Virus genome (UHGV): UHGV-0114729
Length of the DNA stretch: 45,034 nucleotides
Source: a virus
Direction: 5' to 3' (one strand)
Under the pieces are notes generated by a model. That model saw only the letters and a program-made list of their open reading frames with translations. It made no database searches and was not told where the DNA came from. Both the position numbers and the translations under genes were made by a program. Of this stretch, positions 30,252-42,150 are shown piece after piece. The first letter of the stretch is position 1. The number at the start of each line of letters is the position of its first letter.

Positions 30252-30418
30252 GCTGATTTTCTCCTCGCTGCGAGACGCAGCCATTTCTGATCCACCAGGC
30301 GGGCGGTGTAGTCTTTCAGGGTCGGGATATCGGATGGCTTAACCGCGGGCTTAGGCTTGCGGCGCGCCGGAACGCGGAAGATTTCATTGGTGATGACGCG
30401 AGAAAGTGGAGTAGACAT
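30248..30418 (-). CDS. ninE: NinE-like protein
   Basis: Hand-translated 56-aa ORF ([15 protein letters not shown]...[11 protein letters not shown]) resembling lambda NinE; ATGA overlap with the NinB stop and with the phosphatase start. Confidence 0.6.
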
Positions 30419-30873
30419 CAGGCCTCCTGCTTATCGCGCAGTTGCTGGTACTCGCAGCCGGTCGGGATAGTCAGCGCCAGGCCGAACTGAGCGCACCACA
30501 TTTCAACCTTCACCAGGAAGATATGCATTTCCCCGGTGTCGAGGTCTGCGGTGTGGCGCGGCTCCCAGGTGGTGGTCTTCTCACCGGTGATGAAGTCGGT
30601 ATAAGTCACCTCTTCGCAGCCGAGATAGGTCTTTTTGAGGTTGCGCTTAACCCACTCTGGGGTAGCGTCAGTGCGCCCGGATTTAATCAGGTATTCACTG
30701 ATTTCAGCCAGCCACATATGAAGAAGTGAATTTTGAGACAGGCTGCGCTTCTCTCTCCACGGCTTAATTTGAAGGCGGAAGCATTGCCCGTCATTCAGAA
30801 GTGGGTGAAGGTGCTGGGTGATAGCATTAATATTGCCACGATGTAGCTTGATGCCGTCTTTTGGGAGAATCAT
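30418..30873 (-). CDS. ninB: NinB (Orf-family recombination mediator)
   Basis: 151 aa; RSLSQNSLLHMWL resembles the lambda NinB motif; position. Confidence 0.7.
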   Translation of the reverse strand: MILPKDGIKLHRGNINAITQHLHPLLNDGQCFRLQIKPWREKRSLSQNSLLHMWLAEISEYLIKSGRTDATPEWVKRNLKKTYLGCEEVTYTDFITGEKTTTWEPRHTADLDTGEMHIFLVKVEMWCAQFGLALTIPTGCEYQQLRDKQEA

Positions 30874-31053
30874 ACGTCACCTCCGAGAGGTAACGCAGAA
30901 TGCAGAAAATCGCAGGTGCCGTTAAGCATCTGTGACAAGGTGATACGTTCAAGTTGTGGTCGCATTTAATGTCCCCATCAAATGCGCAGAAGTCTTACCG
31001 TCGGGCGTTCAACTCCGACGGCGACTTAATTATGGCTGGTTGATTACTGAAAA

Positions 31054-31638
31054 TCAAAGGTCTTCTTCGTCTTGGTATTTCAGCCTTTTGTCTTTTATTT
31101 TCTGAAGTCTTTCCTCAAGCGCTGGAAGAACCCACTTTGCAAGTTCGGTAGCAGGGAAGCCATTCTCTTTACGGATTCCCGAAGCAATCTCAGCAGCTTT
31201 TAATCCAAGTAAGGAAAACTGGTATTGTCTCTCATCGAAGTACTCTCGATGATCTGGAGGTGAAGACATGTATTCACCGACAAAATTAATAGATTTTATA
31301 GCCTCATTTTGCTTCATTGGAAGGCTGCAAATTTCATACATTGTTTTAGATTTCAGAGACTTCCAGTTTCCCTTAACTAATGAATAGTCAATTTTTTCAG
31401 GAAGCTTTGTTGTAGATTCATACTCACCTTGCTCACCATTAGCCTCGCCATCATCCTGGACAACCTCAGCACACTTAACAGCATAGTTTTCAAGGAGGAA
31501 TACCAATTCTGCACAAATGAATTTTCTTTCTGGGCTAGACTGCTTATTTTCTTTGAACCACCCGATAAAGTGGTTTGCACCATGGCCTATTACTGCCCCG
31601 ATTGCACCACCGATCATTGAACCAACCCACAGTTCCAT
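31054..31638 (-). CDS. Hypothetical membrane-anchored protein (AT-rich)
   Basis: 194 aa; N-terminal glycine-zipper transmembrane segment; GGAG RBS 5 nt after the stop of the upstream 87-aa gene. Confidence 0.55.
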   Translation of the reverse strand: MELWVGSMIGGAIGAVIGHGANHFIGWFKENKQSSPERKFICAELVFLLENYAVKCAEVVQDDGEANGEQGEYESTTKLPEKIDYSLVKGNWKSLKSKTMYEICSLPMKQNEAIKSINFVGEYMSSPPDHREYFDERQYQFSLLGLKAAEIASGIRKENGFPATELAKWVLPALEERLQKIKDKRLKYQDEEDL

Positions 31639-31647
31639 TTAGGCTCC

Positions 31648-31911
31648 CTATTTAGTATTGGCTTCTGTCATTTCTATGTAACGTGGATCGCTTGCCTTAG
31701 GAAGTTTCAAACTCTCCTCCCGATAATGTCTCAACCGTTCAAGGAAATAATCTCGCAAATGCTCGGGCTGCTCGCGCATAACCACTTCGGCGATAACCGG
31801 CATGTTCAGCCGCTCTTTGTACGCCACGCCGGAGGCTGCAAGGTCAACGTTAACCTTGTCGCGTTCCTCTTGGCTCTTTGCAGCAATATTGAAGTCGTTC
31901 ATAATCATCAA
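31648..31911 (-). CDS. Hypothetical protein
   Basis: 87-aa ORF immediately upstream of, and coupled to, the 194-aa membrane protein gene. Confidence 0.5.
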
Positions 31912-31967
31912 CTCATTCGTTTTAATAGAACGTATCTTACGTCAGATAACCGCTGCTGAGACCAATT

Positions 31968-32147
31968 ATGCGCGCAAAGATCCATCGTTACTGCTCATGG
32001 ATATTTTTTATCGTACTTTTCCTGTTCCTGTTTGCTCTCTATCAGAAAGCGTACTTGGGTGTCGCCCTCAATCAAATTATCATTGCAACGCTTGCCGTTA
32101 CTGGTTTTCTCGGTTGGATTACGAGAGAAAAGCATCCCAAGAATTGA
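31968..32147 (+). CDS. Small hydrophobic membrane peptide on the opposite strand
   Basis: Hand-translated 59-aa ORF MRAKIHRYCSWIFFIVLFLFLFALYQKAYLGVALNQIIIATLAVTGFLGWITREKHPKN with two predicted transmembrane segments; below the ORF-track cutoff. Confidence 0.35.
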   Translation: MRAKIHRYCSWIFFIVLFLFLFALYQKAYLGVALNQIIIATLAVTGFLGWITREKHPKN

Positions 32148-32193
32148 GTAAATGGCCACTATGAAGTGGCCGGCTCATCGTAAAAATTAGCGT

Positions 32194-32562
32194 TCAAATG
32201 CCATCGGCACCCTGAAGCATGGCGGCGCGGCAGGCGTTCCAGCCGACTGCTTTTCCATGCTCAAACGCGCTGTCAAAGTCATCATCCATTTCCATCGAAT
32301 CAGGCACAGATACCGGCGCTGGAGGGGCGGTGTAAAGCGGCGTTACTTCTCGCAGCGGGTCGGCATAAGCATTGCCACTATCGAAGCTGACGTTGTTTTT
32401 TGCGCCGCCGCCTGACAGCAGCCACGCCACCGGCTCCGCTTCGAGCGATGCCAGCGCGATACGCGCCAGCTCATTCAGGATTGCCACATCAGCGTGACCG
32501 AGGGTGTATCCAGCTTTCAAATCGGCAACTGCTTGCACGGCCTGTTTGGTAATAGTGCTCAT
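32194..32562 (-). CDS. Hypothetical protein
   Basis: 122-aa ORF in the early-right operon. Confidence 0.5.
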   Translation of the reverse strand: MSTITKQAVQAVADLKAGYTLGHADVAILNELARIALASLEAEPVAWLLSGGGAKNNVSFDSGNAYADPLREVTPLYTAPPAPVSVPDSMEMDDDFDSAFEHGKAVGWNACRAAMLQGADGI

Positions 32563-32572
32563 AGGCTAGTCC

Positions 32573-32755
32573 TCAGTATCCAGAGTACGCGCGGAGTGAT
32601 GCTATTCTCGCGGTGATATCATTGATGATTTCCTGCACCACCACTGCGTGCTCATGCTCATCACGCAAGATGTCAAGGGCGCTGTCTATTTCACGGAGCA
32701 TATCCTGCTGCCATTCAATATCTTCTGATTCCGGTATTTCGTATTTCATGCTCAC
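32573..32755 (-). CDS. Hypothetical small acidic protein
   Basis: 60-aa ORF, coupled to neighbours. Confidence 0.4.
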   Translation of the reverse strand: MSMKYEIPESEDIEWQQDMLREIDSALDILRDEHEHAVVVQEIINDITARIASLRAYSGY

Positions 32756-33090
32756 TCTCCTTTACCGGCTGCGGCAATGTTGATGCCAGCTCTTTCTAGC
32801 ATTGCGACAACCTCGGATTCCTCATAGCACGCTATTTTTCCAGCCCATAGGCGAGTAGTTGGCAGTTTCACAGTGGGTTTATTGCGCTCCATCTTCCGAA
32901 TTAACTCTGAAGCAGAATCGTGAGCCTCGCGGAAAGATCGGGCCTGAAGGAGCATATCCTCATAGCGTTCTTCTGAGGCTTCCAGCTCATCCAGCAGCGC
33001 CAGCACATCGCGAGTTTCCACGAACATATTCGGGTCGAAGTTATCGACCGCTTTAGCCGCGGCTGATTTCAATTTGTCGATGTTGCTCAT
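32752..33090 (-). CDS. Hypothetical protein
   Basis: 112-aa ORF, overlapping starts and stops with neighbours. Confidence 0.5.
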   Translation of the reverse strand: MSNIDKLKSAAAKAVDNFDPNMFVETRDVLALLDELEASEERYEDMLLQARSFREAHDSASELIRKMERNKPTVKLPTTRLWAGKIACYEESEVVAMLERAGINIAAAGKGE

Positions 33091-37891: not shown

Positions 37892-38560
37892 ATGATTCGT
37901 CTTAACAACGAAATTAAAAATCAGCTATGCCATAACCTGCTTCTCGCATCCCCATTGTTTGAGAAAGCGAAAGCTGCGGTTAATGAGAGGGCGAAAATTG
38001 TTGAAGAAATTCGACAGGCATTGCTCAAGCAGGAAAACACTAGCGATGAGCAAATAACTAAGGCTCGGGAAGATTTCAAAGATAACTCCTTCATCAAGAT
38101 GCAGGTCGGCGCTAAAACTGCAATTTTAAAGGTCATTATTAATGGTGAGTATCACGAATTAGCCAGGAACGGTTTGGATCATCGCTATCGCCACCGTGGA
38201 AAACATATTGGTAAGCACGATCTTGAAAGCGACCTGTTCTTCGGAGCTTCCTTCGCGCCTGTAATTGATTCGGGTTTCGTTCCTGAAAGTTACAGCACGC
38301 TGAAGAAAGTTGGAAAATTACACGACCGACTCACTGAATCGACGGTAACCATCAACGTTCTTTACGATGAAGTTGATGCCTTCCAATTGCAGGTTAAAGG
38401 TGCTCTAACCAAAGTCTCAACTGTTAAAAAACTGGCTGAGATGTGGCCTGATGCAGTGCCATATTTGCCTGAGGTGGAACGCCGTGAAGCGACCAGCACC
38501 GCACTTGCCATTCCCGTTGAAACGCTAAACGCCCTTTGCGGCATACCAAAGAATGAATGA
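37892..38560 (+). CDS. Hypothetical protein, first gene downstream of PL (AT-rich cargo)
   Basis: 222-aa ORF with GAGGG RBS; lower GC than neighbours; followed at once by a strong terminator; contains overlapping RNGLDH and RHRGKH motifs. Confidence 0.6.
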   Translation: MIRLNNEIKNQLCHNLLLASPLFEKAKAAVNERAKIVEEIRQALLKQENTSDEQITKAREDFKDNSFIKMQVGAKTAILKVIINGEYHELARNGLDHRYRHRGKHIGKHDLESDLFFGASFAPVIDSGFVPESYSTLKKVGKLHDRLTESTVTINVLYDEVDAFQLQVKGALTKVSTVKKLAEMWPDAVPYLPEVERREATSTALAIPVETLNALCGIPKNE

Positions 38561-38562
38561 CC

Positions 38563-38582
38563 CGCTCCGGCGGGTTTTTTAT
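38563..38582 (+). terminator. Rho-independent terminator after the 222-aa gene
   Basis: CCCGC-TCCG-GCGGG followed by TTTTTTATC. Confidence 0.8.
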
Positions 38583-38721
38583 CGGCCATACATAGGCAGA
38601 TTTTCGAGTCTGCCCATTTATGACAACCGGCGGCCATCCACCGCCCATTGAAACACTGAATAAATGCGTTGAAGTCTTGTATTAACCGTTCCGTTCGCCG
38701 CGATAAGGCCAAGAGGAAATC

Positions 38722-38928
38722 ATGGTAAACCAGCACTACGGTACACAGACAGTAAACCGCGGCGCAGTTCAGCCGGGGATGCTCGTCAAACACAAGGATT
38801 CAACCTGGACGGCATCAGCTAATGCTCGTGGTCGTTTGTATCTGCATCGCGGCGTTGAGATGACTTACACCAGGGATTTGCTGGTTGAAGTTTATCTGAA
38901 CGGTCTGGGGCATGGACTCAGCCACTAG
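38722..38928 (+). CDS. Hypothetical small protein
   Basis: 68-aa ORF with AGAGGA RBS. Confidence 0.45.
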   Translation: MVNQHYGTQTVNRGAVQPGMLVKHKDSTWTASANARGRLYLHRGVEMTYTRDLLVEVYLNGLGHGLSH

Positions 38929-38939
38929 CGGAGGATGTC

Positions 38940-39101
38940 ATGTTAGACAAGAAATGCGGATATTGCGGCAAGCCGGTTAAAACGGAGGAAGTAATCAAGA
39001 GCACCCTTCTCTATCGCAACGGCTCACAGCTGGCGCGCAAAGAAAAAGAGTATTGCTCCAAACGTTGCGCTTCGCACGACCAGATGGCTCACGAAGGCTA
39101 A
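38940..39101 (+). CDS. Small zinc-ribbon protein
   Basis: Hand-translated 53-aa ORF MLDKKCGYCGKPV...EYCSKRCASHDQ with CxxC...CxxxC and GGAGGA RBS. Confidence 0.5.
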   Translation: MLDKKCGYCGKPVKTEEVIKSTLLYRNGSQLARKEKEYCSKRCASHDQMAHEG

Positions 39102-39240
39102 CGTAAAACCCGCGCAAGGCGGGATCTACGTCCGGTGGTACCGACCAAAGTTACACCGGAAACAACATTAAAACCAAAGTTAACCCAATGGGCGCTATCA
39201 ATGGTCCGGGGATTCTAACACCCAAAAAAGAGGATCTCAC

Positions 39241-42150
39241 ATGGAATTTTTCCATCTGATAAAAGCCAGTCAGAAGTCTGGTAAGAAAGATGCAGTGATT
39301 TGGTTCACTGCGAAAAGTGTAGCGCGCGCCAATCTCCAACTCGATGTGGCACTGGAAGAAGCCGGAATTGAAGAAACTGGCCGCGGTAAAGATTATGCCA
39401 AACCAATCCGCACCGATTTCCCGGTATATGACGACCTGCCGGAAGAAGGCGCAGTGGATTACACCTGGTGCGAACGCTACGAACTGCAGAACGATGACCG
39501 CACCTGGCTGCCAAAAGTCACAGCTGAAAACTCTGACGAGAAAACGGCTCAGACCGTTGATAGTCACATAACTACTGAGTCAACGCTGCCAGAAACCGCT
39601 GGCATCACGCTGGACGAACACGACGACGACTCAACCCTCTACCCGGTAGTGCAGATGCCGTTTCGTAAGCAACTGCTTTCCCAGTTCACCGCCGACGAAC
39701 TGCGCCACCACGTAACCCACGAAGAGTACGAAGCTATCGGCGCGCTGGAGATGGACACTGATAACAGTTACGTCCAGAACTTGCTGTTAGCTGCTGAGAA
39801 CTGCCCGGAAGTGAAGGGTTACGACACCAAAGACCTGTGGCGCTACACCGATGCCATTCGCAAAGTGTTCAGCCAGGACAAGCGTCACGAACTCGCGCTG
39901 GTACTCCGTTTCACCAGAATGTGGGCGGCGACTGATTACATTGACCGTGGCATCCTGGCGCGTGAATGGGCCGCCGGTAATCGCATCAGTAGTGTGCAGC
40001 GTACTGATTCCGGCACTAATGCCGACGGCGGTTACGTCACTGACCGTGGACCTGACGCACACCACACACTGGACACTCTCGATTTAGAGATTGCGTGTGC
40101 CCTTCTGCCTATGGACTTCAACCACTTCGAGATCCCGGGCAGCATTCTTCGTCGCGCTAAAGAAATCGTGACCAAAAAAGAAGAACCATGGAAATCATGG
40201 AGCAACATCCTGCGCAATCAGCCAGGCGTTCTGGGTGTTAACCGCACGGCTATTTTTAACCTGGTACGTATCGCACCGGAAAATATTCATTTAACTCCTG
40301 TCGCTCACCTGGAATTTGTTAACCAGACCATGACAGCCGCGTTCAATTCCGCGGTCGAGTTATTGCCGTTGCATGAGGCTGAACCCGCAACACAGGAAAT
40401 TCCCCAACCTGAAGGTAAGGAGTCTCCGCGCAAATCCTTCTGCACTCACGAAGAGAACCTGCAACGCGTGCGTGAAGAAGGAGCACGCCGCCGCGCAGAG
40501 GAAGCGGCAGCACAACAGCAGAAAGTCGAACAAGAACTGGTTAAAAATGTCGGCAACGGAATATTCGACGTTACGGCTTTGCTGCAGAACTCAGCAACTC
40601 ATGGCACGAAAAAGGCTACGGAGACCACCAGCAATGTGCAGGTTCAAGAAACTGTCAGTGATGAAAAACAAGCTGGTGATGAAGTACAGCTAGGCGAAAG
40701 CAGTCTGGAGTCTGGTGAAGAGTCACATCCCGGCCAGAAGGACGATGTAAACCAGAATACGGATTCTGTCGCCAAAAATAGCGATTCTGTAAGCCAAACC
40801 GAACCAGTTGCAGCACAAACCGAGCCAGAAGCGCAATCTGACGAACCAGCTGTTGTTTATCCCGCTTATTTCGAGCCAGGCCGCTATGAAGGGCTGCCAA
40901 ACGAGGTTTACCACGCCGCCAACGGCATCAGCTCAACCCAGGTGAAAGATGCGCGCGTTTCGCTGATGTACTTCAATGCGCGCCACGTAGAGAAAACCAT
41001 CGTCAAAGAGCGCTCAGCGGTGCTGGACATGGGCAACTTGGTGCATGCGCTGGCGTTGCAGCCTGAACTACTGGACGCAGAATTCAGCGTTGAACCGGTG
41101 ATCCCTGAAGGCGCATTCACAACGGCCGCGACCCTGCGCGCCTTTATCGATGAGCACAATGCCAGCCTGCCGGCGCTGCTGTCTGCCGACGACATCAAGG
41201 TGTTACTGGAAGAGTACAACGCCACCCTGCCGCCGCAGGTTCCGCTTGGCGCTAACCTGGAAGAAACGGCACAGAACTATATGGCGCTGCCAGCTGACTT
41301 CCAGCGTATTGATGGTGACCAGAAGCAGACGGCGACGGCAATGAAGGCATGCATTAAAGAGTACAACGCCACCCTGCCGCCGCCGGTTAAAACCAGCGGC
41401 AGCCGTGACGCGCTGCTGGAGCAGTTGGCAATCATCAACCCTGACCTTGTGGCTCAGGAAGCACAGAAACCGGCACCACTGAAAGTGTCCGGTACCAAAG
41501 CAGACATGATCCAGGCCGTGAAGGCAGTCAAACCAGATGCCGTATTTGCCGACGAACTGCTGGATGCCTGGCGCGATAACCCGGAAGGAAAAGTGCTGGT
41601 CACCCGCCAGCAGCTGAGCACCGCGCTGAATATTCAAAAAGCGCTTCTGGCACACCCGACCGCCGGCATGCTGCTGACCCACCCTAGCCGAGCCGTTGAG
41701 GTGAGCTACTTTGGTTTTGACGAGGAGACGGGCTTGGAAGTTCGTGTGCGCCCTGACCTTGAGATCGACCTGGATGGCGTGCGTATAGGTGCAGACCTGA
41801 AAACCATCAGCATGTGGAATGTTAAGCAGGAAAGCCTGCGCGCCAGGCTACACCGGGAAATTATTGAACGTGATTATCACCTGAGCGCGGCTATGTACTG
41901 CGAAACCGCAGCGCTGGATCAGTTCTTCTGGATTTTCGTCAACAAAGACGAGAACTACCACTGGATCGCCATCATCGAGGCATCCGCTGAACTACTGGAG
42001 CTGGGTATGCTCGAGTACCGCAAAGCGATGCGCAATATCGCAACCGGATTCGACACAGGTGAATGGCCAGCGCCAATCACTGCTGACTACACCGACGAAC
42101 TGAACGACTTCGACCTGCGCCGCCTTGAAGCGCTGCGTACTCAGGCATAA
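39241..42150 (+). CDS. recE: RecE-like exonuclease VIII (C-terminal PD-(D/E)XK nuclease domain)
   Basis: 969 aa; C-terminal YHAANGISSTQ...NLVHALA...YFGFDEETGLEVRVRPDL...GADLKT matches the RecE-type nuclease fold; followed by an annealase gene. Confidence 0.75.
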   Translation: MEFFHLIKASQKSGKKDAVIWFTAKSVARANLQLDVALEEAGIEETGRGKDYAKPIRTDFPVYDDLPEEGAVDYTWCERYELQNDDRTWLPKVTAENSDEKTAQTVDSHITTESTLPETAGITLDEHDDDSTLYPVVQMPFRKQLLSQFTADELRHHVTHEEYEAIGALEMDTDNSYVQNLLLAAENCPEVKGYDTKDLWRYTDAIRKVFSQDKRHELALVLRFTRMWAATDYIDRGILAREWAAGNRISSVQRTDSGTNADGGYVTDRGPDAHHTLDTLDLEIACALLPMDFNHFEIPGSILRRAKEIVTKKEEPWKSWSNILRNQPGVLGVNRTAIFNLVRIAPENIHLTPVAHLEFVNQTMTAAFNSAVELLPLHEAEPATQEIPQPEGKESPRKSFCTHEENLQRVREEGARRRAEEAAAQQQKVEQELVKNVGNGIFDVTALLQNSATHGTKKATETTSNVQVQETVSDEKQAGDEVQLGESSLESGEESHPGQKDDVNQNTDSVAKNSDSVSQTEPVAAQTEPEAQSDEPAVVYPAYFEPGRYEGLPNEVYHAANGISSTQVKDARVSLMYFNARHVEKTIVKERSAVLDMGNLVHALALQPELLDAEFSVEPVIPEGAFTTAATLRAFIDEHNASLPALLSADDIKVLLEEYNATLPPQVPLGANLEETAQNYMALPADFQRIDGDQKQTATAMKACIKEYNATLPPPVKTSGSRDALLEQLAIINPDLVAQEAQKPAPLKVSGTKADMIQAVKAVKPDAVFADELLDAWRDNPEGKVLVTRQQLSTALNIQKALLAHPTAGMLLTHPSRAVEVSYFGFDEETGLEVRVRPDLEIDLDGVRIGADLKTISMWNVKQESLRARLHREIIERDYHLSAAMYCETAALDQFFWIFVNKDENYHWIAIIEASAELLELGMLEYRKAMRNIATGFDTGEWPAPITADYTDELNDFDLRRLEALRTQA

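Follow-up and report, generated by a model that had tools for sequence, protein, structure and literature searches.

The window analysed here is the whole 45,034-nucleotide (nt) stretch of the virus genome UHGV-0114729, and the feature under study, positions 30874-32193, is a low-GC, insertion-prone accessory region of a lambdoid prophage, lying where the replication genes give way to the nin genes. On the minus strand the gene order is early genes, a gene for a 122-amino-acid (aa) protein, a homolog of the DNA polymerase III theta subunit (hereafter theta), a gene for a 194-aa protein, ninB, ninE and the remaining nin genes, and all of the flagged genes lie on this strand except for a 59-aa open reading frame (ORF) on the plus strand (Table 1). 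The guanine-cytosine (GC) content falls to 34-44% over the 194-aa gene as compared to 52-62% in the flanks, and an initial annotation made from the letters of the DNA had correctly recognized an insertion at the nin boundary, with an AT-rich 194-aa ORF and with NinB adjoining the block. The same annotation described a coupled two-gene module accompanied by an opposite-strand membrane peptide, together resembling a toxin-antitoxin or exclusion system. Our analysis replaces this plausible-looking module by its real constituents, namely a gene that was already known, a candidate family listed in a catalogue and a family of small proteins that is unannotated, in what is ordinary moron mosaicism. 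The best explanation, which we consider reasonably probable with its proposed mechanisms included, is that three separately inherited accessory units are stacked here, rather than one toxin-antitoxin-style module.

The small partner in the supposed module had been reported as having no recognizable family. Profile and alignment searches instead place it in the DNA polymerase III theta/P1 HOT family, with matches to Pfam PF06440 (E-value 5.5e-35; 119.4 bits against a cut-off of 34.6), phrog_1105 (E 2.7e-39) and NCBIfam NF008207 (109.6 bits, cut-off 97). The protein aligned without gaps over residues 1-76 with P1 HOT (PDB 1SE7/2IDO; ~80% identity, E 2.5e-36) and also matched E. coli theta (E 8.8e-21), and RefSeq annotates the gene as theta, a known family that is not one of the housekeeping nin genes. 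The length of 87 aa first given for it holds for the maximal ORF, which begins at a TTG codon at 31911, but both RefSeq and the HOT alignment support the ATG at 31902 and a protein of 84 aa. P1 HOT takes the place of theta in E. coli and binds to the N-terminal domain of epsilon, the proofreading subunit (PMC2528190), and by homology the theta protein described here may bind epsilon of host Pol III and stabilize this proofreading subunit while phage or host DNA is being replicated. Both HOT and this homolog are copies, carried by a phage, of an accessory subunit of the host replisome (E. coli HolE, PF06440). The homolog differs from HOT in its location, which is the nin region of a lambdoid prophage and not P1, and in its last ~8 residues, because the exchange of the neighboring low-GC cassette cuts inside the 3' end of theta.

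The 194-aa protein, likewise presented at first as having no family, matched two catalogued families, PADLOC PDC-S67 (PDLC05063; a full-length hidden Markov model match at E 6.1e-45, in which residues 7-191 pair with positions 3-190 of the 203-position profile) and phrog_33426 (E 1.2e-29), while no Pfam or NCBIfam family and no toxin family was matched. A word-index search returned 19 relatives, all from Enterobacteriaceae, and a search by profile returned 1167 of 1.84 billion cluster representatives at E<=1e-3 and 682 at E<=1e-10. Family members are ~180-250 aa long, and among the best 150 matches listed nearly all measure 150-310 aa. As the initial annotation had noted, the N-terminus is hydrophobic and glycine-rich (GSMIGGAIGAVIGHG); its Kyte-Doolittle maximum over 19 residues is 1.35 in the window, compared to a median of 1.9 over 141 family representatives, 82% of which reach the transmembrane threshold with their N-terminal helix. 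In the family this helix is usually rich in G, A and V and is followed by a run of basic residues. A confident structure model shows a membrane helix followed by a four-helix bundle, and by the positive-inside rule the bundle probably faces the cytoplasm.

The initial annotation had coupled theta and the 194-aa gene through a GGAG placed 5 nt after the theta stop codon, whereas the junction reads TAG-GGAG-CCTAA-ATG, with GGAG immediately after the stop and 5 nt before the ATG. We compared the locus with 5426 complete E. coli genomes and with 80 theta-carrying viral contigs. The block was found in two of the E. coli genomes, YPE10 and MB20. In MB20, theta and everything upstream of it, the small gene included, are 100% identical to the window, and the slot after theta holds a gene for an unrelated 159-aa protein (phrog_1779); the breakpoints fall at the cargo stop codon and within the last ~8 codons of theta. 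Among the 80 viral loci, theta was followed by the 194-aa gene in four and by the 159-aa gene in four, eight had a gap of ~200 nt between theta and ninB with no ORF in it, and the rest carried diverse cargo of 77-211 aa, mostly starting between -10 and +52 nt from the theta stop. Representative cargo proteins gave no match in Pfam and none of significance in PADLOC. PDC-S67 homologs, in turn, occur without theta (loci L003, L096, L094, L095, and L005), and these theta-free homologs include one that adjoins AbiLi/AbiLii in a Klebsiella prophage, one flanked by P and a ninB-like gene in a prophage of Kosakonia, one on a contig that also encodes a TelK-type telomere resolvase, one on a Leclercia plasmid and one in an island of the chromosome that contains a ThsB-TIR protein and insertion sequence (IS) elements. 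Seven distinct genomic contexts of PDC-S67 have no neighbor in common, and the family is that of a single gene without a fixed partner, found in prophage accessory slots, plasmids and defense islands. Since diverse cargo follows theta and PDC-S67 homologs are found in its absence, the comparison identifies the theta-ninB junction as a cargo hotspot, with ninB as its fixed downstream neighbor, and the close spacing to the theta stop as generic operon packing. Tight gene spacing within a phage early operon is hence no evidence of partnership. The slot is bounded by conserved sequence, and with at least 10 unrelated, mostly unannotated cargo genes seen in it, it offers a cheap place to search for new phage accessory or defense genes.

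Some of these cargo proteins have features of their own. Two of them, of 185 aa (L027:546-1103, plus strand) and 211 aa (L066:2746-3381, plus strand), contain the Rx4H motifs RNNLFH and RNKYAH, which hint at HEPN nucleases, and the 211-aa protein has a weak Csm6 match (E 0.003). The architecture of the 194-aa protein, a helical region preceded by a hydrophobic N-terminal helix, is found without detectable sequence similarity to it in unrelated proteins encoded in or near the slot in L012 (3148-3693, minus strand), L002 (6180-6659, minus strand) and L050, where the 162-aa ORF begins 10 nt past the theta stop.

The 59-aa ORF on the plus strand, also reported initially, is by its pattern of substitution a genuine conserved membrane-protein gene. 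Nei-Gojobori comparison with loci L008, L009, L010, L012, and L013 gave ratios of non-synonymous to synonymous substitution (dN/dS, omega) of 0.08-0.12 at dS values of 0.7-2.9; against L009 there were 17.8 synonymous and 7.2 non-synonymous differences. The differences are concentrated at codon position 3, and in seven of the seven other loci the sense frame is open and the antisense frame is broken by stops, so that a spurious ORF could be ruled out on dN/dS, codon position and antisense stops alike. The encoded protein has two hydrophobic segments and basic N- and C-termini. Among 5.8 billion clusters it has nine relatives, or 15 by profile, all named hypothetical and falling into a group of 59-60 aa and a group of 62-63 aa, the latter occurring in phage PhiR30_1 and DLP12-like prophages of E. 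coli. Their alignment extends over the whole length of the proteins, with M1, K4, I5, W11, Y25, Y29, G31, V32, Q36, G46, and K55 invariant. No Pfam, PHROG or NCBIfam family was matched, a scan of the genome contigs found nothing, tblastn against 50,697 phage records found phage PhiR30_1 only, and RefSeq leaves the gene unannotated in both E. coli genomes that carry it. A known toxin, holin or transporter fragment was rejected as an identification, the matches being at the level of membrane composition (E above 0.004; a PADLOC 4TM effector at 3e-5), and so was a class II holin or pinholin, as there is no holin family match and the gene lies in the early region with the holin and lysozyme genes ~5 kb away. 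The small gene accompanies an intact theta in a K. pneumoniae prophage (57% identity) and a mere theta stub in L008-L012, and it occurs without any theta in L013 (next to xis/int), L007 and L099; its context in L008 looks chromosomal.

The first 15 nt of the small ORF (31968-31982, plus strand; ATGCGCGCnAArAT) are almost invariant even between members with only 37% protein identity, which suggests a constraint on the 5' end of the mRNA beyond coding.

A candidate sigma-70-like promoter, TTTGCA-17-CATAAT, precedes the small gene, and its -10 hexamer is the reverse complement of the theta ATG region. The number of promoter matches returned by the consensus scan was not above chance; the hexamers and their spacing are found again in L008, L009, L010, and L012, and the divergent loci have TTGAAG-17-CATAAT (L007) and TTGATG-16-CATAAT (L013). 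Loci that have lost theta retain a stub of its 5' end, and the stretch similar to the window starts near the -35 in L009 and L010. On the other side of the gene, the perfect hairpin GGCCACT-ATGA-AGTGGCC, already noted in the initial annotation, begins 6 nt beyond the stop codon. Each homologous locus has a hairpin directly after the stop, the stems being unrelated in L008, L013, and L097, and a T-run comes after it on the minus strand in L009 and L012 and on the plus strand in L013. The hairpin in the window is probably a terminator for one or both strands. In silico, the single ORF is accordingly framed by a promoter and a terminator of its own; its GC content is 41%, deviating from that of the flanks, and it is present in two of the 80 theta-carrying viral loci and in two of the 5426 E. 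coli genomes. With a small promoter-ORF-terminator layout, deviant GC and presence or absence between related phages, all as in lambdoid morons, it looks like a self-contained moron unit transcribed against the early operon. Compared with known morons the promoter is unusual, as it overlaps the codon at which the divergently oriented theta starts.

For the 194-aa protein, a membrane-anchored form with a role in exclusion or defense is plausible, and we infer a candidate single-gene anti-phage or superinfection-exclusion factor, whose bundle would sense or bind a phage or host component and whose glycine-zipper helices would self-associate to perturb the membrane or block entry. The small protein would be produced in lysogens, with a role in exclusion or conversion exerted at the inner membrane. 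Early transcription would run antisense through its gene, and read-through of this kind might silence it once early transcription is antiterminated. HK97 gp15, P22 SieA and T4 Imm are membrane superinfection-exclusion proteins, and like the small protein they are small inner-membrane products; they have no sequence similarity to the proteins described here, for which exclusion is a candidate role. If the small-gene promoter is indeed built into the codon with which the divergent theta begins, expression of the small gene and early lytic transcription would be mutually exclusive, and if PDC-S67 acts as proposed, it would be a genuine membrane-anchored abortive-infection or exclusion effector working via its glycine-zipper helix. 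Taken jointly, a new lysogen-expressed family of 59-63 aa proteins with exclusion or toxin activity, served by a promoter at the theta start, and a single-protein glycine-zipper effector in PDC-S67 make up a speculative proposal that we consider rather unlikely to hold in all its parts. The locus provides two small clonable targets, a candidate PADLOC family with more than 1000 cluster representatives and a conserved 59-aa membrane protein.

Several findings weigh against our reading, the first of them bearing on the independence of theta and the 194-aa gene. The two are adjacent in four viral loci and one E. coli genome (YPE10) besides the window, with the junction spacing of 9-10 nt repeated in L014, L015, L018, and L019, and a Franconibacter prophage has an intact, 76%-identical homolog with a decayed theta remnant upstream, therefore indicating that a loose historical linkage exists. 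The same observations speak for a functional two-gene system, be it toxin-antitoxin or sensor-effector, in which the theta-like protein would neutralize or regulate the membrane protein, with translation coupled via TAG-GGAG-N5-ATG. Such a system is very improbable in our view, since the intact pairs all involve 194-aa copies that are 96-100% identical and hence represent one recent lineage, whereas homologs of 56-61% identity and more distant ones occur without theta, and the Franconibacter homolog is intact even though its theta has decayed. Moreover, in ~70 of the 80 phage loci theta is followed directly by ninB or by other cargo, its close relative P1 HOT has Pol III epsilon as partner, and tight spacing is generic in the slot. 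A type II toxin-antitoxin pair was rejected, as joint conservation is confined to near-identical copies with each gene widespread without the other, and as neither a theta/HOT protein nor a membrane-anchored helical bundle represents a toxin or antitoxin fold or family. The coupled module was consequently not borne out as a conserved pair, PDC-S67 being found without theta and theta without PDC-S67. With a pair that is not conserved, varied cargo after theta and generic spacing, the earlier likeness to toxin-antitoxin systems is unsupported, and what stands of that comparison is the plausible exclusion or defense role of the 194-aa protein.

This role has counter-evidence of its own, as the N-terminal helix of the window copy is of no more than moderate hydrophobicity, the protein has the fold of a generic bundle of helices without a catalytic signature, the PDC families of PADLOC are computational candidates only, and a literature search found no experiment on PDC-S67. 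In addition, no sigma-70-like promoter of at least 9/12 was found on the minus strand between 32600 and 31600, and no LexA box on the minus strand upstream of theta. As no promoter of their own was found, theta and the 194-aa gene probably depend on the antiterminated early promoter, and in the lysogen they may not be expressed, which fits a lytic-phase function better than a classical prophage-encoded defense. The 194-aa protein could then be an early membrane function of the lytic programme, serving host takeover, counter-defense or the exclusion of competitors. Its gene lies co-oriented inside the early operon with no detectable promoter of its own, a point in which this copy differs from PDC-S67 as listed by PADLOC, and the cassette boundary is only ~37 nt upstream of its ATG, so that the cassette brings no promoter along. 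We find a purely lytic function rather doubtful, given that family members occur outside phages, on plasmids and in the island beside ThsB-TIR and IS elements, that one adjoins AbiL, and that PADLOC lists PDC-S67 as a defense candidate. With regard to the small gene, the scan for canonical intrinsic terminators found none and the hairpin in the window lacks a canonical T-tract. The double-transmembrane topology described initially is putative: the peptide does have two hydropathy peaks, but AlphaFold2 predicted one continuous helix at a low pTM (0.35) and no two-helix hairpin, a model that is uninformative as to topology. The ORF might alternatively encode a type I (or type V-like) membrane toxin, controlled by early-operon antisense or by a dedicated small RNA, which would stabilize the prophage or abort infection. 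Hok, TisB and GhoT are membrane toxins of type I or type V, and the small protein shares with them that it is a short hydrophobic peptide of a mobile element encoded antisense to a neighboring transcript; it is very hydrophobic with basic ends, read-through transcripts of the early operon would be complementary to the whole of its mRNA, the initial 15 nt of the ORF are unusually conserved, and one relative lies ~2 kb from a GhoT/OrtT gene. Unlike them, it gave no match with the known toxin families of Pfam, PHROG or NCBIfam, and at 59-63 aa with two hydrophobic segments the family is larger than most type I toxins. A dedicated antisense RNA was not found either, the only promoter candidate being a weak 8/12 site at 32204-32177 with none reaching 9/12, and an Rfam scan of 30300-32800 detected no known RNA family, small RNAs included. 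The strong purifying selection over the full length would fit any membrane protein. A toxin is unlikely, and we prefer to regard the small gene as a moron unit with a candidate exclusion or conversion function.

Table 1. Features of the nin-boundary accessory region and its surroundings, in window coordinates.
Feature	Position	Strand	Evidence or remarks
ninB/ybcN-type recombination mediator	30418-30873	-	phrog_72, E 1.1e-45; NF007281, 237 bits (cut-off 164)
31-aa leader ORF (MRPQLERITLSQMLNGTCDFLHSALPLGGDV)	30870-30965	-	Stop overlaps ninB ATG (ATGA)
Rest of ninB leader	30870-30986	-	Hairpin 2 and 31-aa leader ORF
ninB-leader hairpin 2	30961-30986	-	3' arm contains leader-ORF ATG
ninB-leader hairpin 1, CCGTCGG-N10-CCGACGG	30998-31021	-	Hairpin scan
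Promoter-like TTGATT-17-CATAAT	31029-31057	-	Start of conserved ninB leader, downstream boundary of cargo slot
194-aa PDC-S67-family gene	31054-31638	-	PADLOC match; N-terminal glycine-zipper helix and four-helix bundle with beta-hairpin insert
Exchangeable low-GC cassette	~31060-31675	-	Carries 194-aa gene
Junction TAG-GGAGCCTAA-ATG with Shine-Dalgarno of 194-aa gene	31639-31647	-	Sequence reading
DNA polymerase III theta (HOT-like), 84 aa	31648-31902	-	PF06440, phrog_1105, NF008207, P1 HOT alignment
Candidate sigma-70-like promoter TTTGCA-17-CATAAT	31877-31905	+	Consensus scan and recurrence in other loci
59-aa small membrane protein gene	31968-32147	+	ORF, conservation, dN/dS
Hairpin GGCCACT-ATGA-AGTGGCC	32154-32171	.	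6 nt after small-gene stop; 46-nt gap to convergent 122-aa gene
122-aa early gene	32194-32562	-	Upstream of theta, convergent with small gene

Downstream of the cargo slot, the ~185 nt preceding ninB (30870-31060, minus strand) form a lambdoid leader that, irrespective of the sequence upstream of it, is conserved in 26 of 28 distinct leaders. The hexamers of the promoter-like element at its start and their 17-nt spacing are kept in 26 of the 28 as well, including a divergent group with TTGCAA-17-CATAAT. Hairpin 1, reported initially at 30993-31016, does exist but lies 5 nt further on, and the same position in other leader groups holds the stems GTCATCGGAG/CTCCGGTGAC, GTCGCAGTCGG/CCGATTGTGAC and GTCAG/CTGAC. 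Hairpin 2 likewise varies in its stem from one group to another. The leader peptide has a core, LSxM...TxDFLHSA, that is kept in all leader groups, and further downstream RNAalifold found seven base pairs that show compensatory changes; searches of Rfam, NCBIfam and PHROG gave no match for the leader. Perfect 7-bp hairpins with loops of 3-10 nt number three in the 1320 nt of the feature, compared to a mean of 0.73 in shuffled sequences, 7.8% of which reach three, so that the count from the sequence alone is marginal, while comparison between loci supports both of the hairpins that had been named initially.

In both YPE10 and MB20, RefSeq labels the 122-aa early gene upstream of theta a pseudogene and marks it incomplete. 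The motif at its C-terminus, WNACRAAML, also closes the gene that is convergent with the small ORF in L013, and because of this recurrence the small-gene unit appears to have a tendency to sit downstream of the 122-aa gene family. Elsewhere in the window, the plus-strand stretch 37892-42150 contains a putative nucleotide-modification gene of the Nmad5 family, according to the RefSeq annotation of the identical region in YPE10, together with a 969-aa ORF in the immunity-proximal region of the same prophage; both may represent further accessory or defense cargo.

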